64,000 nucleotides of DNA from Marsupella aquatica (lineage: Eukaryota; Plantae; Marchantiophyta): positions 1 to 64,000 of the forward strand of contig OZ316894.1 in NCBI GenBank assembly GCA_973895155.1, given 5' to 3'. The position numbers were made by a program, and so were the translations under genes. The stretch's first letter is position 1, and every line of letters starts with the position of its first letter. This document shows positions 1-63,228 of this stretch, in pieces. The notes beneath the pieces are model-generated. The model saw nothing but the letters and a program-made list of their open reading frames with translations. It made no database searches and was not told the DNA's origin.

Positions 1-191
1 CACTCATTGGATCCGGTATCTCTCTTGGCTATTGATCATCAAAATATTTATTCACGAGGTGTGGGGAGCATCGGAAGAAAAGACTGACTGTTTCCAGGCC
101 AACAGAGACGGGTGTCTCGGCAAGAGGGCCAACTTAATATCGGAAATTGAATGAAATGAAGTTCAGATAAATTCGTGAGGGGTAAACTTAC

Positions 192-509
192 CTGGCGAGT
201 GACAGTAATCTCACTCGAGTCTTCATAGCCGATAGGACTTCGCTTACGGTTCGAATTGTCAAACAGAATTGAAACTGTTGCTTTTGTAATTCCCGCCTGC
301 CCTTGCTTGTAAACCAGCTCTTGCAAGTTGCTTGCCCTAACTTGCTGCAAATTCGTAATTCCCAGCACGAAGCAAATAGAGTCCAAGATGTTCGACTTCC
401 CTGATCCATTCAGCCCTGTTATTGCGTTGAATTGCTGATCAAAGCCGGAAACCACAGTCCTTTGAGCGTACGACTTGAATCCGTCCAAGGTTATCTCCTT
501 CACATACAT
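192..509 (-). CDS. SMC2: Condensin subunit SMC2, first coding exon (gene continues off the left edge)
   Basis: [15 protein letters not shown]...[51 protein letters not shown] is the SMC2-specific N-terminal ATPase head. Phase-0 donor CAG|GTAAGT at 192/191. Confidence 0.95.
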
Positions 510-1356
510 CGCGCCAGCGTCCCCTGGACGACGACAACCTCTGCGCCAGACACGGAGGTTTGATGGCCACCAACATCTCTACATGATCTAAGGACATCCC
601 GGTGCCTATCCTCGCAAGCTCACAATCCTTGTAGAATTCACAATCTGCTAAGAATTACTTGTCGTACTGGCTTCGGATTGCTCAATTGCTATAGTTGCTT
701 CTCGGGGACTTGGTATCGAGCTTTGCGTAGCTACATGCTCACGAATCCGGTCATCCCTGTTAGGTTCGCGTTACCACTTTTACACGGCCTCTCGTCAAGT
801 CCTTTGGGCACACAATTCCTAGTAAGGGCCCTACCTATATACGTATACTGGATGTTCTTCTGCGTTTCGACCTTACATTGCTGGGCAACTATACTTCTCA
901 CCTCTGAGCGCCCAAGGAAGCGGGACAGAATCTCTTTTTCAGCCCGGGATACTGTCCATCCTGGTTCAAGTCCTGCTCATTTCTTGCATGACGTCTCCTG
1001 CTGCCTGAGCTCCTTTTATTTCCCGTCACAATCTACATCAATTTTGTTGCCACTTGCTCGTTACTTGCTTGTTGCCACTTGTCGTCAATTCTTCGTTTTG
1101 TATGCACGACACTTCAGTTGCAAAGGGTTCTTTCTTGGAGGGCGATAAACAAGAGCACTCGCGCCATAGTTTTTCAGAGGGCAATGTGCGGGTATGACGG
1201 TGGGTTGCTTTGGGGTTTGGATGGAAGATCTTCTCATACTTTTTCTTCTCAGAACTTGTAGTTTTGATTCTCAAGTTTTGATGGCAAAGCTGGGATGATT
1301 CGTAAACGAGTCCAGCAGGAGGAATTTGATCCTGGAGAAGATACCGCTACTGCTAT

Positions 1357-9011: not shown

Positions 9012-9500
9012 ATCCTCAAGACACTAAATCCTTTTAGTGTTCTGTGCAGTGTCATTCATGCCAACATTGTACAAATATTGAGGCGAGACCAAGGAAAGAA
9101 CTGTACACTCCTTGGGACAAATCAATAGTAGATTTATGAAGGTGAGTACCTCAACATCAAAATTCCCCCTTTCTCCCCACCTACATGTTGAATTATTCAT
9201 AAATCTAATGATAAAAATTACAACTTACGGCATTTCGGTACTCAGATCTGAAATGGTTCGTGTACTATTTGACCGGAATTGTAATATTTACTGAATTGGA
9301 ATTAGAATAAACAAATTCAGTGGATTTGTTTGCTATAGTGTGGGAAAATCTAAAAAAATTGAACACCATAAAATTAAAGTTTACACTTTATTGGATTCTT
9401 TGTTATAAAAACATTCTTGAACTGTTTGTTAGAAAAGTTCTTAAACTAAAGTCCTCAAGGTTTTGAAGGACAGTATTTTTGAATGGCTATGATCACAGAT
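9012..9500 (+). pseudogene. Truncated, decayed 5' part of the TET/JBP-like dioxygenase gene (paralog of 35563-36160)
   Basis: Shares GAAGGTGAGTACC donor, GGTACTCAGATC..AAATGGTTCGTGTACTATTTGACCGGAATT intron sequence and WE.LKKL.T.KLKF.L.WIL coding sequence with the 35.6-36.2 kb gene. Confidence 0.8.
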
Positions 9501-9554
9501 CTCACCTTTTGGACGTGGTTACAATTATCCCTATTTTCATTGCTCCCCATGTGA

Positions 9555-9952
9555 ATGAGGGTACTTTTATCTCCTGAGGGTACCCTTGTGCATGAGGGTA
9601 CTCTTATCAGTGAGGGTACTCTTATCAATGTGGTACATTTATCAACGATGGTACTTAATTAGATCAATGAGGGTACCCTTATCAATGAGGGTACTCTTAT
9701 CTCCTGAGGGTACCCTTGTGCTTGAGGGTACTCTTATCAACGAGGGTACTCTTATCAGCGAGGGACTCTTATCAGCGAGGGTACTCTTATCAATGGGTAC
9801 GCTTATCAACAATGGTACTTTGATCAGTGAGGGTACCCTTATCAATGAGGGTACTCTTATCTCCTGAGGGTACCCTTGCGTATGAGGGTACTCTTAAGTA
9901 TCAATGAGGGTACACTTATCAACAATGGTACTTTGATAATGGGGGTACCCTT
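9555..9952. repeat. Minisatellite of ~20 quasi-palindromic 18-bp units (ATGAGGGTACTCTTATCA)
   Basis: Visible tandem units with GGGTACCC/GGGTACTC core; second array at ~56992-57405. Confidence 0.9.
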
Positions 9953-13500: not shown

Positions 13501-13896
13501 ATCTATCTCTATTTAGTCAATTGGAAACTTGATTCTTGTCAGATCCGGAGCTGCTCGGAGCTTCAGATCGTGAGGGATTGGGAATGCTTAGAGCTTCAGA
13601 TAATGTGGATGTATTGCAAGTGGGCTGTAGCTCACACCATTAGTATGGTGAGATCATTTAGATGTGGGGCAAGGATATATACTGCTTTGAGTTGCTAAGA
13701 CATCGTTCAACAGAGATCGTTGTTAGCGAAACTACAATCATGGTGAATGCTTTGTTGAGTTTCTGGGTACTTTCCCTGCCATCAATGAATCAAATTTCTT
13801 GTACTTTCTCTGTAATTTTGATTCATGCTGTTGTTGGACTGCAGAAACGAGTACATGAGGTGATGAACGTCACCGGGAGGCGAGCACGACAACAAC

Positions 13897-15953
13897 ATGA
13901 ATAAATTGCAATCAGGCTCGTGGTCCAATCCAAGCGTCTCGTGGATTCCATCACCACTCCTAACTTTGCAGCAGCATCTTCTCACTGTACCCTTGGCGAT
14001 TGTAGTGGTACACGTGGTGTTCTACTGGCACACATTCAGGCGAAAGGATCGTCATCGGAGACCTCCTGGTCCCCGACCATGGCCAGTCATTGGGAATCTT
14101 GCGGTCATCGGACCTCTTCCTCACAGGGACTTTCAAAAGCTCGCCAAGCAATATGGACCTATCTTCCGCTTGCTTCTGGGTTCAAAAGAAACGATTATCG
14201 TCTCTTCCCCCAAAATTGCTGAGGAGATACTCAAGACACATGACATTGCATTTGCCTCGCGACCAAAGCTCACTCAGTTCACAATCATGAGCTACGGTAG
14301 CCAGACCGTTATCACGGCTCCCTATGGACCATTCTGGCGCCATGCAAGGAAAGTGTTCAGTCTTGAGCTCCTGACCAACAAAAGAATCCAACAATTCCAG
14401 GTTCATAAATTACGCCCTACCAAATCCACAGTTAGCTATATTTTACGGTCGCTTCAATTTGTTTTCGTCATTTGAGAGTACATGTAACCTGATCTGATTT
14501 TATTCTCAAGGCCGGATGGATTTCTACAACGGAAAGAACGATTTATCCGGCCTTTGCAATGAAACGAGATCAGCTGCTTGTCTTGGAAACAACCGAACAA
14601 TTGTGCTAGCTGGGACCGGTTTAATCATATCAAACAGAGTTAATTTATTAGAGACATTACGAATTCCCTGTTTTGCTCCCTGTGTTAAAAGCTTCTTGAG
14701 TACCTTTGATCGAAGTTGTTCTTCGTTGTGATCGTTCATTCAGAACATTAGGAAAGAAGAGGTTTCAAGTGCATTGCACTCCATATTCGAAGAATGTAAA
14801 AGTGGGAAACCAGTTTGCTTGAGCCATTATCTGAAGCAGCTCGCCATGAACATCACTCGAATGATTATGAACAAGAGCTTCCTCGGGCCCAAGTCCTCTG
14901 TAGATCCTGGCGAAGCCACAATGGCAATGGAAACCCTTGAGGAGGTGTTCAAATTAAATGGCAGCTTCATCATCGGAGATTACATTCCAATCCTGAAGCC
15001 CTTCGACCTTCAAGGCTCTCTAAAATGGATGCGAGCCGTGGGTCAAAGAATGACAAGTTCTTCCAGAAAATCATCGATGACCGCCGGCAAACACTTCTTT
15101 CTTCAAAGCAACACACCGAGAACGAAGCCATGGATTTCGTCGATAAGCTGCTCACACGTCCCACCGCAGATGGAGAGAAGCCGTGGATGAACACGCAAAT
15201 TAAAGGAATCTTAATGGTATGCACTAGCCTGTCTCCGGTGTTAATTCACGTCTTCTCCTTTCGTTGTGACATTTTGTTTTCTCCATCTGGCTTGCAAGAA
15301 TGTTTTTGAGTTCCAATATTTCTTAATAGTTACTAAACAATGAGAGACTTGTGTGTACAATGGCGGAGCTCGTCAGACACCCACATGTCCTTAAAAAGGC
15401 TCAAGACGAGGTGGACACTATTGTGGGACAGCACCGACTCGTGGAGGAAACCGACACCCCCAACTTGAAGTATTTGCGTTGCATCCTGATGGAAGCCTTG
15501 CGATTGCACCCTGCTGGCCCGATGCTGTTACCCCACGAGTGCAGGGAGGCACGCGAGGTGGCAGGGTATCACATACCAGAGAAATCTCAAGTTTACGTCA
15601 ATGTTTACGCAATAGGGAGGGACCCTGAAGTCTGGGAGCGTCCCCTTGAATTTTATCCAGAAAGGTTTTTGTCGACTACAATAGATATGCTCGGGCAAGA
15701 TTTCAAGCTCTTGCCCTTTGGATCTGGGAGAAGAATGTGCCCTAAGAAGAATTTGGCACTCACCCTGGTAGACTACATTCTGGCCGCGTTCCTTCGAGCT
15801 TACGATTGGACTCTTCCTCCCGGTGTCAGCCCTGAGGATGTGGACTTAGGGGAGGTACCTGGAGCTGCGGTTTACTGTATGCGGACCCCCATTGAGGTTA
15901 TTGCGTCTCCAAGATTGCCGATGAATGTTTATCGCTCCCTTTCATCAGAATAG
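13897..15953 (+). pseudogene. Cytochrome P450, CYP71 clan, pseudogene (exons ~13897-14400, 14744-15216, ~15359-15953)
   Basis: PPGPRPWPVIGNL, WRHARK, EALR (ExxR), FYPERF and PFGSGRRMCP motifs. Frameshift at ~15052 (RM/DKFFQ). The I-helix AGxDT segment and the exon-3 acceptor are missing. CPG is changed to CPK. Confidence 0.9.
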
Positions 15954-18942: not shown

Positions 18943-19847
18943 TAGAGATAGCCGATGGCATCACAATCGCTCTGGTGCTCCAGCCAAGCACAGCTCCTTG
19001 TTCCCAGAGCTACTGTCCAGAGTGCAAACCTACGTCGTGGCAGTCCTAGTGTGAACCAACCTTGATCAGGCCCCAAGAAAGCTGACAGAGCGGCTACATA
19101 CTGAGGCTTGATTCCAAGCTGTGAAAATCCTGCACTTATCTGAGCATGCTTTGTCCCAGATGGGAACTCTGCCCTCTGGGTCCAGCCCCGTAGCATCTGC
19201 TCGTCCCAGCTGTTTATCGAACTGTCCCCATTGCCCATTTGATCCGGCCCCTTTTCCTCCTTGCCCCCGCACTTCCGAATTGCAGCTCGAATGAATGTGC
19301 ACCGACTGAGCAGCCAGGTGGATCAAATCAGCTTTAGTATTATGTCAGTCTTTGTCTGCTGTTGCTCCTTTTGGAGTCTTTGTCTGCTGTTGCTCCCTTT
19401 GGCTCAGCGTCCAAAGCTGTTGACTACCTCGGGCTTGTTTGATAGTAGGTAGGCATGGGGTCGCTGCGAGTTGTTGTACTGTCCTGTATACTTTAGTGGC
19501 GCACCTCCTACCGAAGTATCATGTCTTTCCCCTCCTCAAATCGGCTAAGGTTCTGTACCATAGCATCCGTCTATCATCGGTATCAAGTTCTAATCACATT
19601 GGCTTGCTACAACATTACTCCGACAAGTCTCAGTGACCCAACAGCATCGCGATCCCTAACTACTCCGCCAAATTTTCCAAAGCTCAGCACAGTATTGACT
19701 TTACACGTCACCTCTTAAGCAAACCATTCATTCCTATAGACTCAAGCAACCGATGCTCAGAGTCTCATCGCCTTCGCAGATCATTGGGGGGCAACAGACC
19801 ACCGGCAGCACTTGAGAGATAGATAGGATGCATGCCGACGCGGGAGC
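18943..19847. repeat. Duplicated block 1, copy B, including TL29-like fragment (~19065-19332, minus strand)
   Basis: ORFs 19066..19326 (GSNGQWGQFDKQLGRADATGLDPEGRVPIWDKA) and 18939..19238 (LGIKPQYVAALSAFLGPDQ) match TL29. Confidence 0.85.
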
Positions 19848-19850
19848 CTT

Positions 19851-20192
19851 GAAGATGTGGAGCATAATGGATACGTTATTCCTAAGGGTTGGCGGACTTT
19901 TGTGAGCTACCATTTTCACATGGATCCAAATTTGTATCCAGATCCTCTGAAGTTTGACCCTTCCAGATTTAACGAACCCGTAAAGCCCAGCACTTTCATT
20001 CCATTTGGGAGTGGTGGACACCTGTGTGTTGGATTCGAGTTTGAACTCACGATGATACCCCTGATCATACATCGTGTCGTCACAAATTTCAGTTTCGAGC
20101 TTGACGGAGAGGACGGAGTGATTTTCTGGCCCGCCTACATTCCAAAGAATGGCTACCCACTCAAGATCAGGCGCCTGAACCGACAAGTTTAG
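19851..20192 (+). pseudogene. Cytochrome P450 C-terminal fragment (CYP85-clan-like)
   Basis: EDVEHNGYVIPKGW...YPDPLKFDPSRF...FIPFGSGGHLCVG. No N-terminal part; begins directly at the end of duplicated block 1. Confidence 0.8.
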
Positions 20193-22434: not shown

Positions 22435-23132
22435 CAAGGGAAACTAGGTTCTCATTGTGTGTAAATTAAGGCTTCAAGAAAAAATGACTAGTCTTGAGGG
22501 CTATAGTTCAATTTTTATTGATCATTTATCTGAGGTTTTGTCCTTCTTCTAGATTGCAGGATGTTGTGTATCTATAGTGAGAAATAATTATATCTCGTCA
22601 TTGAGTTTGATGACCTGGACTTCAAGAGGCATGGACTTCTCCCCACTTTTGAAATTAGATTCTGGTGGGTGCAATAGGTCCAATTTATATGTGTGGTGCA
22701 ACGTTACATTGAAAAACCTAAATTGGTGCTTCTACTACTAGAGCAAGGTTGAGGTGAGTCGGGGAGTTGGAGTTTGTATCTAATCTTTGCAATTCATATT
22801 TCAATGAGATATGTGTAGACACATCCACCGTGTATTTTCTAAAAGTTTTATTCTTCAAAAATCCAAAAAATGACATTTCCACAACCCACTCAAGTAAGTA
22901 ACATAATTTCTATTTTTTTCAATAATTTTTTTAAAAATTATTAATATAATAGACATTGTGGATTTAAGTAATTAAAAAATATTATATTATTACAAGTTTA
23001 TATTAATTTTTAATTAAAATTACTATTGATAATAAATATTTACTATATTTAATAGTGTAACAGTTTTATTTAAAAAGTTTGGAAAACAATTTGATTAGTA
23101 CTGACACAAAAATGAAATTGACAATTTTGCAG

Positions 23133-24509
23133 ATGCTCCATAAACGAAGGGAGAGGAGAAAAAATGAAAATAAATTTCATGAATATGGCGCCGAATTTTC
23201 TATCATAACATTTTGTTCAATATGGGATTATCTAAGCAAATTATGTGAATCTAAACAACAATTTATTTTATATTGGATTTTAAAAAATGAAAATATTTTT
23301 GTATATTTTGTTACACACATTTTACAAATAAATGTGTCCAATTTTTCAAGAGCTAAATTTTTGAATGGGTATAACAACTGCAGAAGTGCAATTCCACCAA
23401 TTCTCCCTCTTCAAACACTTCAACAAACCGAGAAAATCTTTCATCATCATCAACAGAGACAAAAATTGCCTCCACTATTGAAAAAATTCATGGGAAAATT
23501 TCACATCCTTAACCTATCCCAACTCCGTACCTTACAAGTAGAGAGGGTAGCTTCTTGTAAAGTTGACAATACATTCTCTTCAACACAAGTAGAAGTGCAA
23601 CAAATATCAAAATCACAACTGAAAAAATTGACTGGAGTGATAATGGGAAATTGGAAGGAAGACATGACTAAAACCAATCATAGTAATCTTACATTCACAT
23701 TTGAGCGTTATCCATCAAATTTTCTAGTGATAGAGAAATCTGAAAATATTGTTTACTTTTACGACAAGTCAGGGAAAAAGCCTTGGCTTGTAGCAATGCT
23801 CATGCACCAACAAATATTGGGAGTGACAACATTACAATTCATTCGAAAACTTTTGAGTGCATTGTTTGTTGCTCATTCTCCATTTCAAAGAGGCGAGGGG
23901 AAAAAAGCTTTTGACAGCTTCATGACAGGATATGGTCCTTGGAATAGCAGTTACATGGGTGGCCGTTTGACTTATTACACACACCAGAAGAAGATGAATA
24001 CCATTTTCGATGATTGCCTTGATGTCAAAGATTTTGAGAAGTGGATCGATAAATATTCACATATTGAACTTATGGATATTATATTGGGCCTTTATATGTG
24101 GTGGTGCCCAGAGATGATAGAGTGTTTTTTGGAATACTCTCATCCATACTTACTATCATCTGATCGTGACAAACATCATGGAAGTGAAGAGCAGATAGGG
24201 GAGAATGTTAGACCTAGTACTTACCAATTATATATAAGTGAGGATTATTGTGTGCAAACACATGCTGATGATGATGCAACTGACTTCACCTTAGCGTATG
24301 CTAGTCATCCTGACCATTTCCTTTCAGCAATCGATTTTGTAATTCCAGAGTATGGAATTAGATTGCCAATTAGAGATGGAAATCTATTTGCATTTCGGAG
24401 CGATGTAGTTCATGGTACAGGCTTTAGGATGAAAACATCGAATCCTGCATATGTTGGAGCTATTACCGTGAATAAAAACCTCAGCAGACTGATGCAAAAA
24501 TTACATTAA
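23133..24509 (+). CDS. TET/JBP-like Fe(II)-dependent dioxygenase (458 aa from ATG 23133), apparently intact
   Basis: DSBH motifs: FMTGYGPW...YY; THADDD (HxD); FVIPEYGIRLPIRDGNLFAFRSDVVHGTG (distal His). A TTTTGCAG acceptor lies immediately before the ATG. Confidence 0.7.
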   Translation: MLHKRRERRKNENKFHEYGAEFSIITFCSIWDYLSKLCESKQQFILYWILKNENIFVYFVTHILQINVSNFSRAKFLNGYNNCRSAIPPILPLQTLQQTEKIFHHHQQRQKLPPLLKKFMGKFHILNLSQLRTLQVERVASCKVDNTFSSTQVEVQQISKSQLKKLTGVIMGNWKEDMTKTNHSNLTFTFERYPSNFLVIEKSENIVYFYDKSGKKPWLVAMLMHQQILGVTTLQFIRKLLSALFVAHSPFQRGEGKKAFDSFMTGYGPWNSSYMGGRLTYYTHQKKMNTIFDDCLDVKDFEKWIDKYSHIELMDIILGLYMWWCPEMIECFLEYSHPYLLSSDRDKHHGSEEQIGENVRPSTYQLYISEDYCVQTHADDDATDFTLAYASHPDHFLSAIDFVIPEYGIRLPIRDGNLFAFRSDVVHGTGFRMKTSNPAYVGAITVNKNLSRLMQKLH

Positions 24510-34536: not shown

Positions 34537-35217
34537 ATGGCATGTAACAAGCAGAAGGCCAAGAAGCCTAAGACGGAGGTGAGCAACACACAGGTGTCTT
34601 GCACAGATTGTGAGAATTTCTCCAAGAGTCAAGTGTACCAGAAGGCAGCTCATTGTTGTGCCATTTGTGATGATGGTGGGGGCTTGGTTATCTGTGATGG
34701 CCCATGCACGAGACATTTCCACCTAAACCCTGAGTCTAACCTTGCTGTAGAGAACAATTGTCCAGGGGTGGGGCTCCCCTCTGCACACAAGGGAGCCTGG
34801 ATGTGCACTGATTGTGTAGAGAAGCAAGCTAAGTGTGCACAGTGTGGAAAGTTGGGGTCTTATGAGACCTTTGCTGATGCCGGACTAGTTGTTAGGAAAT
34901 GCCCTGACAGATTTTGCATAAGATTTTATTGTTTGTCATGTTTGCCTACTCATGCCACAGTCTGCCCACTTCATACATGCAAGGCATGTGGTGAGCATGA
35001 TGATGAGTATTGGACAGACATAGTCCATTGTGTTAGATGTCCCACAATGTGGCATTTTCATTGTTTGAAGGACCTTCAAGCAGAAGGCTATGCTTGTGAC
35101 AGAGAAATCTATGATCACTCTGCACATGGCGTTGATCGATGGATCTTTTACTGTCATCGCCATCCGATTGATCCTACTTTGCATACTCCTGTCAGAGATC
35201 ACATATCTTGGCTTTGA
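34537..35217 (+). CDS. Stand-alone EDM2-type multi-PHD zinc-finger protein (226 aa)
   Basis: CAICDDGG.L..CDGPC.RHFH...C.DC....CAQCGKLGS...C..RFYC..C...CPLHTCKAC...CVRCPT.WH.HCL...IFYCHRHPID..L.TPVRDH matches the EDM2 PHD module, including its TPVRDH tail. Acceptor TTTGTAG just before the ATG. Confidence 0.85.
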   Translation: MACNKQKAKKPKTEVSNTQVSCTDCENFSKSQVYQKAAHCCAICDDGGGLVICDGPCTRHFHLNPESNLAVENNCPGVGLPSAHKGAWMCTDCVEKQAKCAQCGKLGSYETFADAGLVVRKCPDRFCIRFYCLSCLPTHATVCPLHTCKACGEHDDEYWTDIVHCVRCPTMWHFHCLKDLQAEGYACDREIYDHSAHGVDRWIFYCHRHPIDPTLHTPVRDHISWL

Positions 35218-35727: not shown

Positions 35728-35922
35728 AAATCAGTACTTTGGGAAGGTGAGTACCTAAACATCAAATTTATTTCTTTTTGTCCTCCTAAATCTTAAATGG
35801 TTCATAAATCCAATGACAAAAGTTACTTACGGCATTTTGGTACTCAGATCTTAAATGGTTCGTGTACTATTTGACCGGAATTGTAATTTTTACTAAATAA
35901 ATTATTTGTTCTTACATGGCAG

Positions 35923-37286
35923 ATGGGAAAAAGAAAGCGTAATACTTTAAGAAAAAAAGAATTGGGGGAAGATTTTTCTGTGGATGTATTTGCTACAGTG
36001 TGGGAAGACCTCAAAAAATTAGATACCGTAAAATTGAAGTTTGCACTTCATTGGATTCTATGTCATGACAACATTCTTGAACTTTTTGTTAAAAAAGTTC
36101 TTAAACTAGAGTCTTCAAGATTTTCAAGAACACTATTCTTGAATGGGTATCAAAATTGTAGAAGCCATATCATTCAGATCTTTCCTCCTGAGGTGTTCAT
36201 TGAAATTGATGATATCTATTTTCATCATGGTTTCAGACTAAAATTACCTCAACCTTTGAAAAAATCAATTACTATGTTTTCTAATCTTGACATTAGAAAG
36301 CTTAAACTTTTCAAAAAGAAAGAGATAATCTTTGTAGAAATGGAGGAACTTATGCTAAAGTTGAAGTAGACGTTCAACGTATTTCCTCTTCAAAACTAAA
36401 AACACTTACTGGTGTAATTTTAGGTGATTGGGATCAAACTACAACAACATTTACCTCTGATCCAAACTTTATTTTCTTAAAATTTCCATCAGACCTCATT
36501 ATCGTAGAAGAAAAGAAAGGATTTACCTATCTTTTTGATAGGTCTGGAGTCAAACCATATTTGATAGCAATGATATTCCATCAAGATATCCTATCACCTG
36601 ATTCAATGGTCTTCATTCGAAGATTATTAGAATAATTACATGCTGCCCATCATGTTATCCAAAGAGGGAAAGGAAAAAGATCATGGGAAAGTAAGATGAC
36701 AGGGTTTGGTCCTTTTCATAATCCTTACAAAAAAGATCAAAGTTGTGTATCTTTTTATACTCATGAACAAAAGATAAAGACATTCTTCAATCAAGATTAT
36801 CCCGATGCAGCCAATTTTGAAGACATGGTAGATAAATATTCTCATCGAGAGTTAATCGACATTATTCTTGGACTCTACATGTGGTTATGTCCACAAATGT
36901 TAGACAGCTTTTTAGATTATTCTCATCCTTACTTATGTTCAAATGATTATAAGATGAACATATTTGAGAAAGCACTAAAATGTAAAGGTCCTAGTGCTTA
37001 TCAATTATATATTAGTAAAGATTATTGTGTAGAAACTCATGCTGATCATGATACAGCAGAATTTACTTTATGTTATGTTAGTCATCCTGATGCCAAGATT
37101 TCTCCTGGAAACTTTGTTATTCCAGAGTATGGAATATTATTACCTATTAGAGATGGTAATTTATTTTCATTTCGTAGTGACATTATCCATGGCACAGGAT
37201 ATAGAATTCCAACATCAAATTCTATATATGTAGGAGCTGTTACCATAAACAAAAAATTAGATAGACTTTTACAAAGAAAACATTAA
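35923..37286 (+). pseudogene. Second TET/JBP-like dioxygenase, disrupted
   Basis: Clear paralog of 23133-24509 (DKYSH.EL.DIILGLYMW.CP; THADHD; FVIPEYGILLPIRDGNLFSFRSDIIHGTG). Frameshift at ~36330 and in-frame TAA at 36633-36635. Confidence 0.8.
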
Positions 37287-39954: not shown

Positions 39955-42363
39955 CTATCTACTCAACAACCCTTGAGTGACAACGTCCGGCCACGAAGGA
40001 GGAGTAGGTAACCTTACTAGTCTCCTAAGTGATTTATACCCTTGAGCAGAAGAGTTCATAGCCTTATTCCGTATCAACTGTTCTCGTAGCTTAACAAGCT
40101 CTTTCTCGTACTTATGCGGAACAACATACCCTTCATGGCAGACCCAAACAGAGTATTGGTATGGCCAAGGAAACTCTGGAGTTATTGGCGGAAAAGGAGC
40201 TTCAGCACGTCGGAGGACATATACCCAACACCAAATTTCATATTCCGAAAATTTATATCTTCTACCCTTATCAATGGGAGGAATAGCCTTACCCGGCTTA
40301 TAAGTGGGAATCAACATTCGAATACTCGGTAGATACGTACCAGGTAAAATCTGTTGTTGTTGATGTATACTCTCCATTTCCAGATGTCCGAAAGCTATCT
40401 GAAAATCATTCTTCTCCCACTTATGAATTGAAGCAAGGTTAGGTATAGGAATTAGGGATGGTAGTACCACTGTGTGCCGAAGTTTGGGAGGTACTCTGAT
40501 AATACGAGGATCTTCGTCTTCCTCTCCATCACTTGGAGCTCCTTTCCAACGAAAAATAATGTATGGGTTTGAAGAAGGTATCACCGACTCCTTAGTAGGC
40601 CAACGTGATAGTACAACAGGAGATGAAGATGCAGGAGGTGGAGAAGAATTCCCCATTGTCGTGTTGATGGGCTTCAGCTGCTCAAAATCTGGTGAATTTG
40701 CTTCATGAAAGATCTGTTGATTTCTTACACGACGCAACCTTTTCCCAGGTCTTCGAGTATATGTCACTTGAAATTGCTCCGTAATAAGTGAACTCTCATC
40801 TCCAAGTGATATCCGAGTACCCTTATCTTTGCTTGAATCCAGTAAGATAGAAGCTGATGCAGAGCTAAATGCCAAATCAGGTGTTCCAGACAAAGGTATG
40901 GGTGGAGATACACTCTTGGTCTCAGGTAGCCCTAAATTGCTTGAAGGTCCAAGAGATGGAGTGGTTTGTAGACTGTGTTGAGACTCAAGTAATCTCTCTT
41001 CTGGAAGGTAAGCTGGAGAAACCCAATCAATAGATGGGTGTGGAGGAGGCCCTTTTCTTGCCAATGCTTCTGCTAACTCCTCAGACATAATCAGCGCAAC
41101 TGTTATTCTGGTTTCAGGGGTCGGCCACATAGGAAATGGCATGACAAAATTAGGTGAAGTTGGTTGTCCAGCTACTCCTTCTACATCTACTATTTTGTCC
41201 TCTGAATCAGCCTTAAACAACTTTACAAGCTCCCGGCATGATACCGCCGGAGGTTCCATTGATTGTTGTACAAGAGGAACCACATCTAGGTTTGGGGAGG
41301 GACTACGAGAATCTTCCAAATTATACTCCTGTAAAGCTTTTAAAGCATTATTACTCACTTCCATGGGTGGTGAAGCAGGGTTCTGTGAAGTTTTATCATA
41401 CCCATCCGCTGCAGTAGTATATTGTTGAGGAGGTTCTCCTGGTAAGCTTTCTTCATCCACATCCATCCTGTCTTCATCATTCGCTCTGAAAGCAAAATTG
41501 TCCTGATCAAGATCTTGATCCTCTGATGGGTGGGAAAGAATTGGCTCGTCTCTCCCGCCAACTGGTTCTCTTGTCTCTTTCAGTCTCCGAACTTCATTTA
41601 CCAGCTCAGATTCTTCGCAAGTGAGTAGTTTGCATAACGCCACCAGTGTTGAACTGGATCGGACTTCTCGTACTTCCGGCAACTCATTTGCTTCACAGGT
41701 AGATGCGCTCCAATGGGTACGATAGAAGACTTTCTCTGAAAGGAGCAGACATTTATGCTTGTGATAAATGTGAGCTAGATAGGGAGTCAAGTTGGTAAAT
41801 CTTAACTTTCCAGCTTGCAACCTGCTACAAAAGTTCTTTACCTGGGTATGAATTACCCTATATAAGATCTTCGTCCAATTGATGGTCTGCTTCTGTTCTA
41901 ATGAAGAGATAACGGTGGCAGCAAAAGAAAGAGTAATACGTGTCTGACTCTCTGGATAGAAAATTGGTGACAGAAATCGAAAAACATGCTGCAAAGAGGT
42001 AACTAAACAGTCCGTGGTTACCCAATCATTTCGCCTCTTAAAGGATTCAGGAGCAAAGAAAGACTCTATATAAGCTCGGGGCTCTCCATCAATCTTCTGC
42101 AAATCCTCGCCCGTTGTCGGCGTCGAGTAGACTCCCGCTATGAGCGCTTCAGTCCAAACACTTGGATGCGAGCGGACACCGATTCCTTCCTCAGCGTCCC
42201 ACACACCTTGGTCGATGAGGCTGAACTCGCACATCCTCCAAGGGAAACGAAGTAATTTCTTCAAGCCCATCAATGCAAGATTCGTCCTCAATTGTCGGCG
42301 GTCCACCATATTCGACGGGATAATTGCGAGTATTGGTCGCGTCGTAAGTTTGGACTCCACCAT
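39955..42363 (-). CDS. Gypsy accessory ORF (plant-mobile/transposon-protein-like N-terminus plus Pro/Ser-rich tail)
   Basis: RSHPSVWTEALIAGVY...DC...VFRFLSPIFYPE...ITLSFAATV...INW..LTPYLAHIY resembles extra ORFs of bryophyte gypsy elements. Lies between integrase and LTR. ORF track starts at TTG 42432; first ATG is 42363. Confidence 0.65.
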   Translation of the reverse strand: MVESKLTTRPILAIIPSNMVDRRQLRTNLALMGLKKLLRFPWRMCEFSLIDQGVWDAEEGIGVRSHPSVWTEALIAGVYSTPTTGEDLQKIDGEPRAYIESFFAPESFKRRNDWVTTDCLVTSLQHVFRFLSPIFYPESQTRITLSFAATVISSLEQKQTINWTKILYRVIHTQVKNFCSRLQAGKLRFTNLTPYLAHIYHKHKCLLLSEKVFYRTHWSASTCEANELPEVREVRSSSTLVALCKLLTCEESELVNEVRRLKETREPVGGRDEPILSHPSEDQDLDQDNFAFRANDEDRMDVDEESLPGEPPQQYTTAADGYDKTSQNPASPPMEVSNNALKALQEYNLEDSRSPSPNLDVVPLVQQSMEPPAVSCRELVKLFKADSEDKIVDVEGVAGQPTSPNFVMPFPMWPTPETRITVALIMSEELAEALARKGPPPHPSIDWVSPAYLPEERLLESQHSLQTTPSLGPSSNLGLPETKSVSPPIPLSGTPDLAFSSASASILLDSSKDKGTRISLGDESSLITEQFQVTYTRRPGKRLRRVRNQQIFHEANSPDFEQLKPINTTMGNSSPPPASSSPVVLSRWPTKESVIPSSNPYIIFRWKGAPSDGEEDEDPRIIRVPPKLRHTVVLPSLIPIPNLASIHKWEKNDFQIAFGHLEMESIHQQQQILPGTYLPSIRMLIPTYKPGKAIPPIDKGRRYKFSEYEIWCWVYVLRRAEAPFPPITPEFPWPYQYSVWVCHEGYVVPHKYEKELVKLREQLIRNKAMNSSAQGYKSLRRLVRLPTPPSWPDVVTQGLLSR

Positions 42364-42603
42364 CGCATCAATCGTAAAGGACACTTCTCTTGCCGTTCCT
42401 AGAAGTGGACGCTTCTCGTAGCGTCCCGTCAAGACTAAGTTTTAGGGTGGACGCTTCTCTCAGCGTCCAGTGCAAAAACTAAAATTCCGAACACTTGTGA
42501 AGGGGGAGGGAATGCTGATTCTAATAAAGTACAAACTACCTACCGCCCTCCACTGAAACTATGACCTGTCCCAGGTGAAACACTAAATAGGAGACTCATG
42601 ATA

Positions 42604-43920
42604 TCACTTAACCCAGAATCCATTGATTCGGGTGTCAAGTGGGTGACCGTCTAAGGTAGTCAAGGAAACCGAACCGTTAGCCCAGATTTGGGTAACTCGA
42701 TAAGGACCAATCCAATGGGTATGGAGTTTCCCAGGAAATAACATATAACGGGAATCAAAGACTAATGCTAAATCACCAACATCTAAATTCACGACTCACA
42801 GCTTTTGATCATAAACAAGCTTACGCTTGTTCTGAATTGTAGCTGTATGGTCTAACGCTAAAAGTCTAACTTCTTCTAATTTGACAATATCAAAAAACCT
42901 ATGTGGGAGACTAGCCGCTGGAGAGAGACGGTTGGATACCAAGAGTCATTCTGTTGGGAAGGAGAATTCAATAGGAATGATACTGTCCAGGCCATAAGTC
43001 AGGTAGAAGGGAGTGTGAAGGGTTGTAATTTTCTTGGCAGTACGGTAAGCCCATAATGCAGAATGTAACTTCACATCCCAGTCTGTCTTGTGAGACTCTA
43101 CTATCTTATTCAGGATCTTGCCCACAATGCCATTAGCTCTTTCCGTTAAGCCATTAGCTCTGGGGTTGTAAGGAGTAGTTTTGCGATGCTTGATAAGATA
43201 TGTGTTAGTAATTAACTCAATAGTTGAGTTAAGAAAATGCAAACCCCTATCGCTTACCAACTCCAAAGGACACCCGAACCGAGTAATAATGTGCTCAAAG
43301 AGAAATGCAGCCGCTGTTGTAGCATCATTCTTGCGAGTGGCTTTAGCCTCCACCCATTTGGTGGCATAATCAGTGGCCAGAATAATGTATTTACTTTGGC
43401 TTTTTCGAGCTGCTGGTGAAATTGGGCCAATAAAATCAATACCCCATTTCTCAAATGGTGTCAAAGGCAGGATGGGCGTAAGAGGCCATTTGGAACTAGC
43501 AGTGGGTTTCCCTATTCTTTGACAGGGGTCACACGTCTTAATAAAGTTGTAAGTATCTCTATGCATGGTAGGCCACCAGTACCCAGCATCCAAAATTTTC
43601 TTTACAGTAGTATTGACAGCATAATGGCCACGTGTTTCTCCATAATGTAAAGCTTCAATTACTTGTGGGAGTTCCCTGTTCTCCAGACATCGTCGCATCT
43701 TCTGATCAGGACCTTGTTTAAACAAAGTGCCCTGAAGGATAGTATAAGGTCCCACCTTATGTGCAAAAACAACTCGTTCTTCCGCATTAAGGCCTTCAGG
43801 AAAACTACCATGAATCAACATGTGCACAATATCGAAATACGGTGAAGACTATCCTTCAATGTGCCACAAATGCTCATCTGGGAATTCATCAGAAAGATTA
43901 TGCTGATTCTCTGGCCCAGG
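42604..43920 (-). mobile_element. Ty3/gypsy (non-chromovirus) integrase, 5'-truncated, with premature stops
   Basis: HHCC (H..GHYA..YWWPTM..CDPCQR), DDE core (WGIDFIGP, SDRG, NGLTER), GPY motif (HWIGPYRV). No RT/RNaseH upstream. Confidence 0.92.
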
Positions 43921-44531
43921 TAAGATGCACGGGCATTGGGCAGGGTGAATCTTGTCAGAAGTTCACATTTGTTAGACTAGAACCATTGGGATGCACAAGC
44001 TTTGAGGTCTCCTAAGCAATCACCAGTGCCTTTGATTTTGTCCCTAAACTAAGCAAAGTTCTCTTGTAGCATGTTAAGGGGAGCCCTCTACCTCTAAACA
44101 ATGAGATCCTAAACTAATTTCACTTGAGACATCTCTAGGTACGTAAATAGACAAACACTCATCAGGGAGGTCCAATTCTCAATTTCAGAGACAGTAGACA
44201 TAGAAGTAGGCCCTATGGAGATAGATGAAATCAATAGAACTGAGAAACTAGTAGGGAGCAGGAAAACTACTCATACACAAATAGTCGCTTCCAAGTTGAA
44301 ATTCCAAGTTTTAGAATAGAAAGAAAAGTGACTCTTCTATGGTAATGATGGATAGAAACCAAACAGAGATAAATAATAAGAAAAAAAACAACTAATGCAA
44401 AGATAAATTGAATTTAGGGTGAAATGAATACAATGGGCATCATCATATATACGGGCATATATATCTCACAGCTTTGTTCATTAGAATCCCCTGGGAACTC
44501 CACATGTAGAGATTTTGACTTTGATTCTTAT

Positions 44532-47500
44532 CTAACTGTAATTGTAATCAGTAAACATATCAAAGTGAATTCGCTCCGAGGTCGTGTTGTCCCTTTGATC
44601 AAGTGCAGCATATCGAGCTTCCCGGTCTTCATCTACTTGCTCTTGTCTTGCATGACACTGAGCCCATCTTCTCTTACTCATGTCATTCCTAAATGCCATT
44701 TGTCTCTCCTCTCTCTGTCCGGGGGTTTCCTCGACCATAATACCTTCCTCATTGTACAGTTTACACACACCAGGTCCTCGCTTGTCTGAAAGTTGTAATT
44801 CATCATCAATGTCCCCTTCTTCTAGGGATTGAGTAATGAGGTAGGACTTACTGACACCTGCAGCACTTCCCCATCTTAACATAGGCAGCTCACCTTTCAG
44901 AAACCCAGCTGCCACCATCAAATTGTACATCCTAGCAGCCAAAGGCCTTGCTCGACTAAATAATTTCCACAAATCTAGACCACCATCCTCCATCTCTCCA
45001 GTAACTGAGATGCGGACATCTGCTTTCTTGCCTGACCTTCCCACAACTTCGTATAATGTTCTTGTGAAGCAGTACCATTTGAAATACCGAAGATCCTTGA
45101 GCATGTTGTTGTATGTTTCAATGTGATGGACACTCCACAACCATTTCTCGATCTGCTCCAAAAAACTTATCTGCTGATTTGTCCTGTAACTAGGTGTCAT
45201 TAGTATCCGGATACTTGGATGGTGCTGCCAGATAGAAAAGTAAGTGGGGGTCGCTTCGTACATAACAGCTATTCCATCCTGTCCTTCTATTTGATCTCCC
45301 TCTTGCACTTGGTAATCCTGTGGTGGATCATGATATCCCCAAAGCAAAGCGGGACCAAAGTACTTCCCAATATTATAATTATACACACCTAGCTCTAACC
45401 GTGTAATAACTACTTCCGTGGGAGTCACTGCTTCCCAATAACTACTTTTCTCCAAGTGAACCAAAGATACATCTTCGGGGTTAAAGGGGTATACATCATT
45501 TCTAAAGTAACCCCCTTGACGAGCCACCACCGCTGGGTCACGCCTCAATTCATAAAAGAACCTCATTGCCAAGTGACTAAGCTCAGGTGCAATTGGTAGA
45601 TTGAAACTCATCCAATCATCAGATACTACTATGTCAGAGGTGAAAAATGGGTTGAATGCGACAGTAACCCCGTCCCTCTCCATCTTCTTCCACTGGGCAG
45701 CCTCCAAAAATGTGATGAGTCGGGGAAGTGTATACTTCCCACAATTGATCCGTACTTCCAGAGCAGCCCACGTTTTCAATATCAAGGGCAACAACTCATA
45801 TAACTTACTATAAACATCTAGACAACATTTTCTCTGGTTATCCCTCTGTGCTAATCCCTCATGAACCATATTAGCCATTGCTTTAAGTGCAATAAAAGTT
45901 TCATTTTGAGGATGCTCCCTTTCTAATTCCGACAACATGAATTGAGCTATTCGACTGTTAGCCCGACCTCCTAATCTATAAGACAAATCCTCAGGTAATT
46001 GTACATTAATATGTCCAGACCACTCAAAAAAAGGCAGCATGAATCTAATCCTTATAGGGACTTCATCCCAAATCTGATCCCAATCTCCAGGTCTGATATC
46101 CCTTTTATTTACCTCTGCACTGGCCAAAATTATCCGAAGGGTTTCTAGTCCGAGGGCTTCATCAACCTCAATCGGATGCCAACCATCACTCTGCTCTCCA
46201 GACATTGTGGTCCAGTGGTTGATGCTGATCTTTTTCAGGATCTCAACTCGTTGTTTGTTTATTGGGTCTTTCAAAGCCCCATCCAATAACTTGGTGGCTT
46301 TCTTTGCTTCATCTCTCAACTCTTGCACTCGAAGTTCCCAAGCATCATAAGCATGTCGTGGTATCCGAACATCCTTAGAATTACATTGCACCAACTCTCG
46401 CTGGGCTATTTCACCCAACCACTTCTTTCTCTCCTTCTCTCTTTGCTTGGCACTTAATTCTAATGTTCGGATATACTCCACCCTCTCCAGGTTTTGCTGC
46501 TCCAACTTTTGTAACGCTTCAAAAGTCAGTGTGAGCTGCTGGGTAGTTTCTTTTAGCGACTTCTCTATCACTGTTATCATCTGAGAGGTATGACCTGCAC
46601 ATTGAGAGTGAGTATAGCGCACTTTAGCAAATTCATCTTCTAATTGCAGCCACTTCTCCTTTTCTTCTTCATATTGGCCTGAAGCCTCCTTGCTCGCTTT
46701 TTGGGCCTCCTTCAATTGTGCATTCAACTCTCTGCCCTCTTCTTCAAAGGCAGCTACATACCGACTCAATTCTTCTGCCTTTGTGGTATTCTGAGCGTGT
46801 TGCTTCTCTGCTTCCTTCCGGACAGTTGTCACTTCCTCTATCAGCAAAGTAATCCTTGCCTCTCTTTCTTGGGACTTCATCTCCTGCTCATGCAACATTT
46901 GTTCTCGTATCTCCACCTTCTCATTGAGGAGTCTCACCATCTCCTTGTTTTCCTTCAGCAAACTCTCCAACTTCTCAATCCTCTCTTGGAGCTTAAGGTT
47001 GGTGTTGGCGCTTCTGAACAGATCTTCTTCCTGCTGCTTTGCCTTTTCTCTCTCTCTTACCCCAGTTTCTGCTTCGAGTGCACAAATGTGGGCCAACCCG
47101 CACACTTCCTTGGCTTGATGTAACCACAAACGCTTGTCACTTCCTACAGGGAAGGGTCGATTAATAAACTTCATCCTCTGCTCAAAGGAGGTGAGCTCAG
47201 ACAGAACAACATTTGATAACAACTCTGTCAACACTGGTTGATGGTATACATAATCAGATTGGGCAGTGGATGTCATAGCTTCTTCTTCCTCTTCGACCGG
47301 GATTATCACTCTCCTTTTCTTTCTTTTCAAGGACTTAACACACACATTCCCCTTTATCCTCAATGTACGTAATCCTTGTGCGCCTTCTTCATCAGAATTG
47401 TCCACTTCATCTGCACTGCTTGAGACCAGGCCCGAGACCAGGGATCCCTTTGGGGCATAGAGTCTCGGATTATCTTCTTCCCCATCCTCGCTCTCCGACT

Positions 47501-48271
47501 CCTCCTTTTCTTCTTCCTCCTGGTTTGCCTCCTCTCGCTCCTCTGAATCGCTGTCCTGCAAGGAGATTATTGTGACCGCGGTTGTGATCCTATCGGCAGT
47601 GAGGGCGTGGTCCATCACTACGCTTAATACATATGCACAAATTGACGGAAACAATGGTAGCCCCTTCCTGGTTATAACACTTGCAAGGTTGCGCTTCCAT
47701 ATCAGCAATGGGTGAAGAGTTCCATCTAATACTCTCTTGGCAACTGATAGTTGCTCTGGCGTTACATAATGGTACCCACTCTTGAGGATTACCCATTTAG
47801 TAAAGAACTCCACATACTTGCGGACCTCTTGGTTTGTCATAACGCGCCATATTGGACCTTCTTCTCATGCTGGAGCTCTCCTCCTTGTTTTAGGAAGGCA
47901 CTCATCTCTCTTCCCGTAAGTGCCTCAATTGGATAGTCAGCTGGTAGGCTGTCTGGGGCAAAAATCCCAAACAAAGTCGCTAATTCCTTGTTGGGGATGC
48001 GGTAGGCTTGTGCTCTGTATGTGATAAACACTCCAGTATCTGCAAAATTGACATCCACAATATCTTTGTAAAGCTGACAAGCACGATCAATTGATACAAA
48101 CCTATCAATTCGGACAAGCCCATAGCATCGAGCCCTTTCAAATATCTCTCTGTATTCTTCAATGAAAGCCACCTCAGAGATTGAGTTCCTCAATCTTTCT
48201 TCTGGAGTTGATCGAGGTTGTTTATTTTTGGCTGGAGGGACCTCTACTCGGGTTTGATTTGGAGATGTCAT
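44532..48271 (-). CDS. Retroelement-type accessory protein: 144-aa and 1102-aa ORFs overlapping by ATGA (probable frameshifted single gene) with acidic tract and long coiled coil
   Basis: Long intronless ORFs adjacent to gypsy integrase; E/K/Q-rich heptads; no catalytic motif recognised. Confidence 0.55.
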
Positions 48272-50737
48272 TGTGAAATCTTTACAAATGAAGGTAGTTC
48301 AGTCAACTTATCCACTTCGCAAACATTCGGAACATCCTTCCTTCCTAAAGATTTCAATGGGGCGCTCGCACTGTGAAAACTCTAATATACTTGGCAAACA
48401 TGTTGGTCTCATAGATTGAAGTGGTTTCAATGATGGCACGGTCAATTGAATAGCGGACGGTGGTCTTAGTGTCTTAGTGCCTTTCCTTTTATGGTGTTTG
48501 AATCCTCTTCCTCCTACAACTTGGAGCAATAGCTTCCCTCGTTCCACTTCCTTTTGTATCCAAACAATGATGACTCTTCTTCTCTTGAATGGAGACTGAG
48601 GGTACAATCCCTCTTGTGATGATATTCGCTTGAATGGAGAGGGTACAATCCTGACACTGTTCATTTTCTTGTCGGCCACCCTTTTGTCCTATATCTCATG
48701 AAGTTGGGTACACCCCACACAACATACAAACCGTTAAAAGTTTCTGACAATTAACCTAGTTGTACTTAGACAATACTTTAATATATAAATCATGACTTGT
48801 TAATCATTAATTATGCTTTATTATCTCTCTTTGCAACACTATTAGGGGGTCACACATTACACACAACTTATAAAAAAGGAGATTGAACTAAAAAAGAACA
48901 AACTATATGACCAAAGGATAGACTCTCAATCTAGGGGATCTTTCCGCAAGCCACCTAATCTAGAATAGTTTTCATTACTTAGATAGTTTGCACTACTATA
49001 TATTATTCACAACTATATTATATCTCAAATATATGTTTCTTGAAGAAGTGTGTTATAATTCCACTCCTCTCAATTAGTTGTTTATTTTAATATATGTACT
49101 AGAAAGCTTAATTTCTACTCAATTAGTAGTTTAATGTATGCTAGTAGAACATTATGGACCATATTAGACTCTCAAAACTCAAGCTAAAAGCCCTTATTTT
49201 CCTGGTCATATATTATGCAGAAGATTGCAAAAATCACATCACTTTGGATGAGGTAATTAATTTCTCCTATATTTTCACTAAAATTTGTAAAATTATCTTA
49301 TCATAACAATCTACGATACCATCAAAATTTTGACCATAAATAATAGCCTTTGACAACTTGAGTTAGAGTTAATATTACATACATTAATTATACTCAAACA
49401 AGGCCTAAAAAATGTAACTAGGGGGCCCACGAACTAATTCCAAATACTCTTTTAGCTCCAATGCACTATCTTTAAAATTTGAAATATTATGGTATCTCCT
49501 CAAAACAACAAGCTGTAAGACTCTAATGCATATACTGAAATCTCTTGTTTAGACTCTATTAGGGCATCAAAGCCCAGCCGTAACTCAGTTATAGCTTAGG
49601 ACATAAATCACTTTTATGGCCTGGAAGTAACTTCTTATGGGGTACCTACAAAGGTGCCCCGCAAGTCTCATACATCATAAAGTTTTATGTCCGTAGGGTG
49701 AAGACCATATGTTTTAAGAGAAGTCGCCCCGGCACTAGTCACTAGTGCAAAGCCTGCCCGGCACAAGTGGCCCCTACGATGATCCCAGTGATGGAATGAG
49801 GGGTGAACTGAGTGTATTTTCCCCACTCACGAATTTGGGCAGCTCCTCTGAAATCCTTGATGAAATCCATCTGGGCATCACACTTAGGTCCACATTCATC
49901 AATATCGTTGTTGTTTGTCCTGAATTCGTAGTCAATGCACTATTGGGGTGAGGAAGAGATTCCCTCCAATCTTATTTAATGATGAGAGCCGCATAGGTGA
50001 CGGTGAGCAAGCTCACCGACATGGCTGCTACGTCGAGCTGTGAATTGTGGTGATGGATGGTTGTCTCCCAAAATTGTTCTACAGGCACTCTCGAGCAAGG
50101 AATTCTTCTAATTGTTTGCTACTTGTTCTTCCATATTACATGAATTTAGTTTTGACAAAGAACAAACAGTTCTGAAACCGAGATTCTACGGGGAATAGAA
50201 ATTGTTTGCTCTTGGATGTCCTTTGCTCATTTTAACAGACTTTCAAACAATGGATTTGATTTTAGACGTATGTTGGTGACAAATCCCCACATGTAACAAT
50301 CTATTGCACATCACATGAAACTAAAATGCTAATCTCTGTGCAAGCGCAATTGAACAACTACTGTTTTTTACTCATCTCTACTTCAATGTTGGTGTCTCTA
50401 TTAGCTTTGAGTGCTTAATTTCAGAGTCTCTCTTAGCTTTGAGTGCAGAATTGTGACTACGCCTGTCGAAATAGTTTCGAGGCGCTCAATTGTCTCAGAA
50501 GTTATTAAATTCCTAGGTTCAACATAGTGGCAAAAGTTACAACGATGCGCCGTCCAAATTTCTGTTGTTCTGATTCTGGCCAACGCTTTCTATTCTGGAT
50601 TTGATTGCCACTACATTTACTTTGTTGCTAAGACCAAAAATCTCTCTTGAAGACTCATTGACAGCCTACGATGGTGATGACACCTGCAACTTTGTCACCA
50701 TCCTTAAGATTCTTTTCTACCCCATAACTAGTTCTTA

Positions 50738-54500: not shown

Positions 54501-54632
54501 CAAGTCTATTCTTCCCCCACAAACCCATGTTTCAGATTGTTCACTGTCAAAGTTCCAGATGAAATCTATCATGTCAGACTTAGAATGACTTAGTGTCCCA
54601 ACGAACTCCCAAAACAAAATCTGCAAGCCCAT
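51519..54632 (-). CDS. Spliced TRF-like (telobox) Myb protein with N-terminal retroelement-accessory-like domain and coiled coil
   Basis: Exons 54632-53172, 52824-52668, 52480-52200, 52061-51865 (GC donor), 51744-51678 and 51572-51519 join in frame. They give ...RWSKEETNCLKQAVRRFGPGKWSRILAAEGAHFIDRSEIDLKDKWRNLQ, where LKDKWRNL is the telobox. Confidence 0.8.
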
Positions 54633-54896
54633 TGTGCTGAAGATATTCTGAATGTCGCGCTTGACACAATGTCGTCACCACAAGTGGTGGGATAAAATAG
54701 AATGTTGGCATCGCCATAGGCTTGGAAGACATCGTTGTCCCTTCTTCCCACTAGTAGGCATGTACACCAAACCTCTGGTGGCACACTATCTTGGTTTGAT
54801 ATCAGTTTGATATGTAGACAAATGTCATGCTAGACTGTGGTGACAATGAGAATGGTCGTGCTCCCCAGGTTCTTACAATAGTCTACGAGCCCATTA

Positions 54897-56498: not shown

Positions 56499-56930
56499 CA
56501 TGTACAAATATTGAGGCGAGACCAAGGAAAGAACTGTACACTCCTTGGGACAAATCAATAGTAGATTTATGAAGGTGAGTACCTTAACATCAAAATTCCC
56601 CCTTTCTTCCCACCTAGTACATGTAAAATATTCATAAATCTAATGATAAAAATTACAACTTACAACTGCATTTCGGTACTCAGATCTGAAATGGTTCGTG
56701 TACTATTTGACCGGAATTATAATTTTTACTGAATTAGAATTAAAATCTTGAAAAAATTTATGTGGATTTGTTTGCTACAGTGTGGGAAGATCTAAAAAAA
56801 TTGACACCATAAAATTGAAGTTTACACTTTATTGGATTCTTTATTATGAAATATTCTTGAACTTTTTGTTAGAAAAGTTCTTAAACTAAAGTCCTCAAGG
56901 TTTTGAAGGACACTGTTTTTGAATGGCTAT
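56499..56930 (+). pseudogene. Second truncated, decayed 5' fragment of the dioxygenase gene
   Basis: Highly similar to ~9066-9500 (TGTACAAATATTGAGGCGAGACCAAGGAAAGAACTGTACACTCCTTGGGAC...) and homologous to 35620-36160. Confidence 0.8.
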
Positions 56931-56991
56931 CAAAGATGTCACCTTTTGGATGTGGTTACAATTATCCCTATTTTCATTGCTCCCCGTGTGA

Positions 56992-57405
56992 ATGAGGGTA
57001 CTCTTATCTCCTGAGGGTACCCTTGTGCTTGAGGGTACTCTTATCAGTGAGGGTACTCTTATCAGCGAGGGTACTCTTATCAATGGGTACGCTTATCAAT
57101 AATGGTACTTTGATCAATAAGGGTACCCTTATCAATGAGGATACTCTTATCTCCTGAGGGTACCCTTGCGTATGAGGGTACTCTTATCAATGAGGGTACT
57201 CTTATATCAGCAAGAGTACTCTTATCAATGAGGATACTCTTATATCAGCAAGAGTACTCTTATCAATTAATGGGTACACTTATCAACAATGGTACTTTGA
57301 TAATGAGGGTACCCTTATCAGTGAGGGTATTCTTATCTCCTAAGGGTACCCTTGTGTTGGGCCTTGTGCATGAGGGTACTCTTATTAATGAGGGTAATTT
57401 TATTA
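56992..57405. repeat. Second array of quasi-palindromic 18-bp units
   Basis: Same consensus as 9555-9952; contains the perfect palindrome ATAAGGGTACCCTTAT at ~57117-57132. Confidence 0.9.
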
Positions 57406-62812: not shown

Positions 62813-63228
62813 CCTGCATGAAAAACAACAAAATTAGCTGATGCCATATTTTGCTCTGAAATTATATAGAGCTCTTCACATCAGATTTTCCCGTGGAGCT
62901 CCACAATGGACTCTAAAGTCAATCTCAATTGGCCAACTATCGGACTAGTATTTTTCATTTTCCATTACCTATGTCCCAAGCTTGATCTGCACCATGAATG
63001 TGCAATCTAACCCAAAGCTTCACTGACATAGAAGTTGGTTGAGCATGTTCACACATTCAACGTACTTTGTGAGCACAGACACAAATTAAACGAATTCAAT
63101 CCGAATCTTCTCCAAAACCTGGTCAGTTGGATCATATTTTCACTATCTTGGGAAGTGAACTTGTACCATGCACTCTCTCGATGCCCTTGGGGCTAATAAT
63201 TACTCCAATGCCTCTAAAGCCACCAAAC

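Follow-up and report, generated by a model that had tools for sequence, protein, structure and literature searches.

A predicted TET/JBP-fold dioxygenase without the canonical 2-oxoglutarate-binding arginine in the genome of the land plant Marsupella aquatica

Removal of 5mC from DNA relies on ROS1/DME glycosylases in plants, which have a fold unrelated to the TET enzymes and act by excision and repair, and on TET oxidation in animals (PMC11065753). Three 2-oxoglutarate-dependent 5mC oxidases, TET2, NgTET1 and CcTet, carry an Arg on the last strand (Arg1896, Arg289 and Arg385, respectively) and a stacking aromatic residue (Tyr1902, Phe295 and Phe391). CMD1 of Chlamydomonas reinhardtii (PDB 7cy4-7cy8) depends instead on vitamin C and forms 5gmC. 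As reported in PMC7854593, CMD1 keeps the corresponding Arg410, but this residue faces elsewhere and the site is occupied by Trp358, which excludes 2-oxoglutarate; activity requires Trp358, His249, Thr337, Thr399 and Arg244. In fungi, many DNA transposons carry TET/JBP genes, and PU, AG and PE types of these genes are described in PMC12730594.

For land plants, no description of a TET/JBP protein was found in the literature searched, a search that did not reach the TET/JBP surveys of the Aravind group. A moss member may be among the proteins given in those surveys. Physcomitrella is included in the figure of PMC4738411 on phyletic distribution. While the family itself is known, what appears to be new here is the presence in a land-plant genome of a clade of predicted TET/JBP fold whose co-substrate pocket seems to have been rebuilt.

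The window analyzed, a stretch of 64,000 nucleotides from Marsupella aquatica (GCA_973895155.1, contig OZ316894.1, positions 1 to 64,000), contains a TET/JBP-like gene at 23133..24509 on the forward strand. The preliminary description of this DNA, which was made from the sequence alone, had claimed an intact frame at this position, and the frame indeed encodes 458 amino acids from the ATG at 23133, within a stop-free stretch that spans 23061-24509. The longest open frame reaches 482 codons; when the 3.3 kb around it were shuffled 1000 times, the longest frames averaged 92 codons and never exceeded 202, which excludes a chance origin of the frame. The predicted protein has a pI of 8.9 and consists of a helical N-terminal part (about residues 20-140) without a fold match, followed by a TET/JBP-type double-stranded beta-helix domain in the predicted structure (about residues 190-458). 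Directly 5' of the ATG ends a predicted GT-AG intron (22894-23132, forward strand), preceded by a short predicted in-frame exon (22870-22893, forward strand), and the CAG that stands directly 5' of the ATG is also present in the paralog described below. In public sequencing runs X1 and X2, which belong to two studies, the gene is covered by a single contig of 3336 letters that differs from the window at 47 and 50 letters, respectively. The indels listed for X1/X2, which account for 17/30 gap positions, all lie outside the 23-kb frame.

Assignment to the TET/JBP family depends on structure and relatives, as the sequences fall below Pfam cut-offs. A search with the Pfam Tet_JBP model had been proposed as a check, and neither window protein matches Tet_JBP (PF12851) or PF20515; among the 56 alignment members, 3 and 6, respectively, do so, all below the cut-off. 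A PDB sequence search with the single protein returned nothing useful. Three relatives of near full length, at 35-42% identity, were recovered, and a profile built from five rows yielded 66 proteins at E <= 0.001 among 1.84 billion representatives. Among 23 relatives looked up, an organism could be assigned for only P0057, from the chytrid Geranomyces variabilis (KAJ3183836.1), and the Atlas neighbours comprise fungal-rich clusters without names together with one cluster in which 16% are Tet_JBP. Searched against the PDB, the family profile matches CMD1 as the sole dioxygenase (E 0.0056); a match to USP16 was set aside, as it falls outside the core, in a stretch that is helical and charged. 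No relatives were recovered from two metagenome scans, one viral scan or a phage tblastn, and P0046 alone came up when the broad alignment was used in a word-based search. Examination of 3717 candidates yielded no fused forms of 803-2290 aa, although this speaks only weakly for their absence.

A structure model of residues 145-458, built from the 56-row alignment, has a pLDDT of 81 and a pTM of 0.81 and replaces an earlier model from 5 sequences that was discarded (pLDDT 37). The model contains the double-stranded beta-helix together with TET/JBP-type N-terminal strands and helices. In Foldseek, the top ten matches are entries of CMD1, CcTet and TET2 (E 1e-7 to 1e-5). In VIA-align, the order is CMD1 (Z 14.7, rmsd 3.8, 237 aligned), TET2 (Z 14.6, rmsd 4.2, 240 aligned), NgTET1 (Z 13.5, rmsd 3.6, 204 aligned), AlkB (Z 12.4, rmsd 3.2, 171 aligned), OsALKBH1 (Z 12.1) and CcTet (Z 12.0), so that TET leads AlkB by no more than about 2 Z units. 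The named top viral matches in the fold comparison are JBP1/TET domains. TET/JBP entries thus rank first in the comparison with NgTET1, CcTET and CMD1 that had been suggested at the outset, and the best matches are not the non-nucleic-acid dioxygenases that the preliminary description had named as the outcome against its claim. A structural search with the earlier model reached a Z of 5.7 at best, so that no fold is assigned to the N-terminal part, and an Atlas search with this part yielded no usable match; it is an addition in comparison to TET2, NgTET1 and CcTet. On the model and its relatives, the window protein is assigned as a TET/JBP-fold dioxygenase.

The fold and the iron triad are common to the window protein and TET2, NgTET1 and CcTet. 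The HxD motif (THADDD, codons from 24258) provides two of the iron ligands, His377 and Asp379, with Asp381 next to them (24261..24269, forward strand), and aligns with the HLD of CMD1; His377 is conserved in 37 of 38 rows, Asp379 in 37 of 39 and Asp381 in 36 of 39. The distal ligand His427 (24411..24413, forward strand), within VHGTG (codons from 24408), is present in 32/32 rows and aligns with the VHGT of CMD1. Both motifs had been noted in the two paralogs, and the second copy does carry them as ETHADHD and IHGTG. A further residue, Arg253 of the QRGEG motif (23889..23891, forward strand), is Arg in 25 of the 26 rows covering the column; from its motif position it is likely the counterpart of TET2 Arg1261 and CMD1 Arg244, and a first-shell Arg may also be shared with the 2-oxoglutarate-dependent enzymes. 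The triad and Arg253 are nearly invariant over the 66 relatives and across long branches.

The residues expected to read the base differ from those of solved TETs. Thr445 and Asn447 (24465..24473, forward strand) occupy the positions of the stacking aromatic (R+6) and of the base-reading residue (R+8), in a register deduced through P0046 and P0057. No aromatic residue is found at position 445 in any of the 21 clade rows defined below, nor in the Arg-keeping relatives. The neighbouring strand carries a conserved Tyr or Phe at position 367 (33/37 rows) that might take over base stacking. Thr386 aligns with CMD1 Thr354, which contacts 5mC. The Asp that binds the N4 of 5mC (H+5 in CMD1 and NgTET1) aligns with Ala382, one residue away from the conserved Asp381.

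The last strand of the protein, PAYVGAITVNK (codons from 24444), lacks an Arg, as previously observed, and so does SIYVGAVTINK in the paralog. In a profile alignment that is ungapped from the HxD motif to the last strand (hhalign probability 97, E 1e-10), the canonical 2-oxoglutarate-binding Arg of the chytrid protein P0057 is matched by Ala439 (24447..24449, forward strand). A tree was built from those 27 A3 rows in which His377 and position 439 are both present, with 29 of the 56 rows dropped as fragments. In this tree, 21 rows group with the window proteins with support of 95/93 (midpoint root, with long branches flagged), and Arg is missing at position 439 from all 21. Arg is kept in P0046, P0057 and P0059, in contrast to the window clade, and is absent in the three other rows outside it. 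Judged on these aligned rows, the loss of Arg is clade-wide rather than a private decay. A second loss possibly occurred in P0064, P0065 and P0067. These form a TET/JBP-like group of their own, distant from the others, in which the last-strand Arg is likewise missing and a Lys is conserved five positions further on.

A candidate replacement is Arg432 (24426..24428, forward strand), located in the loop before the last strand. It is found in 17 of the 21 clade rows, is absent in the remaining 4, and occurs in none of the 6 rows outside; in the model it lies at that end of the barrel where the lost Arg would have been. Arg432 may replace that residue as the anchor of 2-oxoglutarate. The inward-facing positions 388, 390, 439, 441 and 443 are small apolar residues.

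CMD1 is the best or tied-best fold match, with an identity of 16% over the structural alignment. The two proteins align without gaps from the HxD motif to the distal His and share Ser/Thr at H-8, Thr at H+9, a Phe on strand IV and a Thr after the distal His. Among the vitamin C contacts of CMD1, Thr337, Phe371 and Thr399 are matched by Ser369, Phe402 and Thr429. The pocket otherwise differs, with Ala439 for Arg410, Ala390 for Trp358, Ala443 for Ser414, Thr445 for Phe416, Asn447 for Arg418 and Tyr367 for Ser335. Of the CMD1 residues His249, Thr337, Trp358, Thr399 and Ser414, which define the CMD1-type pocket, Thr337 and Thr399 are matched, the Trp358 and Ser414 positions are both Ala, and His249 found no alignable position in the window protein. 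Given that CMD1 keeps its Arg and uses a Trp358 that is absent here, the analogy with vitamin C dependence is weak, and the window protein, to go by its pocket residues, is not of the CMD1 type. Of the earlier reading, the TET/JBP-like fold, the iron triad and the loss of the last-strand Arg were borne out, and the step to another co-substrate in the manner of CMD1 has less behind it than was proposed.

The nearest outgroups by sequence are P0057 and the fungal transposon-borne TET/JBP genes described in PMC12730594 (PF20515), with which the window family has in common compact genes, several copies, damaged derivatives and Thr/Ser at the stacking position. Two full-length copies and two 5' fragments are present in the window. 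The paralog, at 35923..37286 on the forward strand, has 50% identity over 426 codons, but in the window its reading frame shifts near 36307 and meets a TAA stop at 36633-36635; two paralogs, implicitly both intact, had been described, and this holds for the 23-kb copy but not for the second as it stands in the window. Contigs from public runs X1-X4 contain an extra base at 36307/36308, and a C is found at 36633 in 3 contigs of X1, 2 of X2 and 3 of X3. Two X2 contigs are identical to the window apart from exactly these two differences. As the run contigs are open at both sites, the breaks represent an allele or an assembly error. Further, more divergent copies of the gene are also found in the public runs. 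Between the two paralogs, dN/dS is about 0.28 (dN 0.43, with a dS of 1.53 that is near saturation), and purifying selection acts between them.

The two decayed fragments, both on the forward strand, derive from the 5' end of the paralog. The first (9012..9520) comprises the upstream exon, the intron and the first codons and is followed by an 18-bp minisatellite to 9952, and the second (56501..56972) runs into the same minisatellite to about 57403; the two are 85.5% identical over 912 nt. Both repeats (9012-9952 and 56501-57403) thus combine the paralog 5' end, an internal deletion and the minisatellite, and their deletion joint recurs in contigs of X1 and X2; they are possibly a non-autonomous element. 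The presence of several copies and deletion derivatives suggests past mobility. The TET-like gene is also AT-rich (GC 0.35, GC3 0.30) in comparison to the three P450 frames of the window (GC 0.48-0.52, GC3 0.50-0.55). Low GC, scattered copies, fungal outgroups and the carriage of such genes by fungal transposons reported in PMC12730594 together point to arrival on a DNA transposon. No transposase or terminal inverted repeats were recognised near either copy between 20 and 39 kb.

Several other features surround the two copies. Host genes include the first exon of an SMC protein (48-578, reverse strand) and a P450 in three frames with apparent breaks (13867-15953, forward strand), with a C-terminal P450 fragment at 19827-20192 (forward strand). 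The four best PDB matches of the P450 frame at 15360-15950 are plant enzymes, which supports the land-plant host that had been proposed. A stand-alone frame at 34537-35217 (forward strand), 0.7 kb upstream of the TET paralog, encodes three NSD-type PHD fingers (Pfam matches below cut-off) and presumably resembles plant EDM2. It is strongly depleted in CpG (o/e 0.19) and occurs in four runs as many variant contigs with a very high summed depth, which is not taken as copy number; this depletion and these deep variants indicate that the frame likely represents a cassette for reading histones, carried by a repeated element. The possibility that the PHD frame is fused to the paralog was rejected, as the frame has its own stop, nothing like it accompanies the 23-kb gene, and upstream of the donor at 35747 there is no ATG in frame. 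On the reverse strand, a retrotransposon-like region (39955-48298) includes an integrase (rve, H2C2) at 42946-43848 and long frames of 828 and 1110 aa without a Pfam match, and 51846-54674 contains one frame of 509 aa and another of 218 aa with a weak Myb-like match at its end. Adjoining a TET 5' fragment, an open frame of 1659 aa (57854-62833, reverse strand) combines OrsD (PF12013) with DEAD/Helicase_C and looks like an intact fungal-type mobile element. Its middle region shows what we take to be tyrosine-recombinase-like motifs.

Taken together, the gene is proposed, with moderate confidence, to code for a TET/JBP dioxygenase that lacks the canonical Arg, oxidises the methyl group of 5mC in DNA and likely derives from a transposon. 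In the proposed mechanism, His377, Asp379 and His427 would hold the Fe(II) that activates O2. The base, flipped into the pocket, would lie against Arg253, and Asp381, Thr386 and Asn447 would read it, as alignment to CMD1, TET2, NgTET1 and CcTet suggests. The co-substrate pocket would have been rebuilt across the clade, and the single likeliest arrangement, at a little under an even chance if the enzyme is active, is that 2-oxoglutarate is still used and is held by Arg432. A DNA transposon, such as those that carry the family in fungi, would have brought it into the plant, with the present copy devoid of a transposase. Several findings weigh against this reading: the Arg-to-Ala change seen here is reported to abolish activity in CcTet (PMC11040006), the stacking aromatic is replaced by Thr445, the N4-binding Asp aligns with Ala382, Arg432 is missing from 4 of the 21 clade rows, AlkB trails TET by little in Z, and neither a Pfam match nor a transposase or terminal repeat was found. 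Use of another co-substrate by an active enzyme is itself a serious prospect; that this would be ascorbate or a 2-oxo acid with an uncharged tail, perhaps yielding a non-standard base through a switch independent of CMD1, is possible but doubtful. Such a switch would account for a clade without a single Arg at position 439, the small apolar lining and the retained iron triad, and it gains from the first or tied-first rank of CMD1 in three comparisons and from the matched vitamin C contacts. However, the essential Trp358 is replaced here, along with Ser414 and Ser335, CMD1 and TET2 are practically tied in Z, CMD1 itself retains its Arg (PMC7854593), and Arg432 could restore the 2-oxoglutarate anchor.

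The joint absence of the co-substrate Arg and of the stacking aromatic, together with the basic pI, would also suit a relative that still binds metal but has little or no catalytic activity and attaches to (methylated) DNA, perhaps serving as a reader or in anti-silencing, particularly as the equivalent Arg-to-Ala change in CcTet is reported to abolish activity (PMC11040006). This is improbable in view of the near invariance of the three iron ligands and Arg253 over long branches. Dead enzymes seldom retain their iron ligands in this way. Activity on thymine, 6mA or RNA instead of 5mC in DNA is held to be quite improbable: members of the family act on thymine (JBP), on 6mA (CcTet) and possibly on RNA, the base-reading residues (Ala382, Thr445, Asn447) are unlike those of solved TETs and enzymes of the AlkB type come close behind when folds are ranked, yet the top fold matches are all 5mC enzymes, and Thr386 and Asp381 suit the reading of a pyrimidine N4. 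Finally, the AT-richness relative to host genes and the damage to the paralog and fragments in the window might indicate a contaminant or a decaying foreign insert that is functionless in the plant. Very little probability is given to this explanation, as the window also holds intron-bearing plant genes, the 3336-letter contig recurs in two studies, selection between the paralogs is purifying and both paralog breaks are absent from the contigs that cover them.

An intact and constrained TET/JBP gene in a land plant, with a short and intron-free coding sequence, makes enzymatic 5mC oxidation in plants directly testable; such an enzyme would act on the same mark as the DEMETER/ROS1 glycosylases. 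A clade of at least 21 proteins in which the triad is kept and the Arg is gone would imply either a new way of holding 2-oxoglutarate or a new chemistry, and the previous TET homologue with a changed pocket, CMD1, yielded a new base. It is conceivable, though rather unlikely, that a land-plant lineage has kept a TET-derived DNA-modifying family whose co-substrate switched independently of CMD1 and which may write an undescribed base on methylated DNA.
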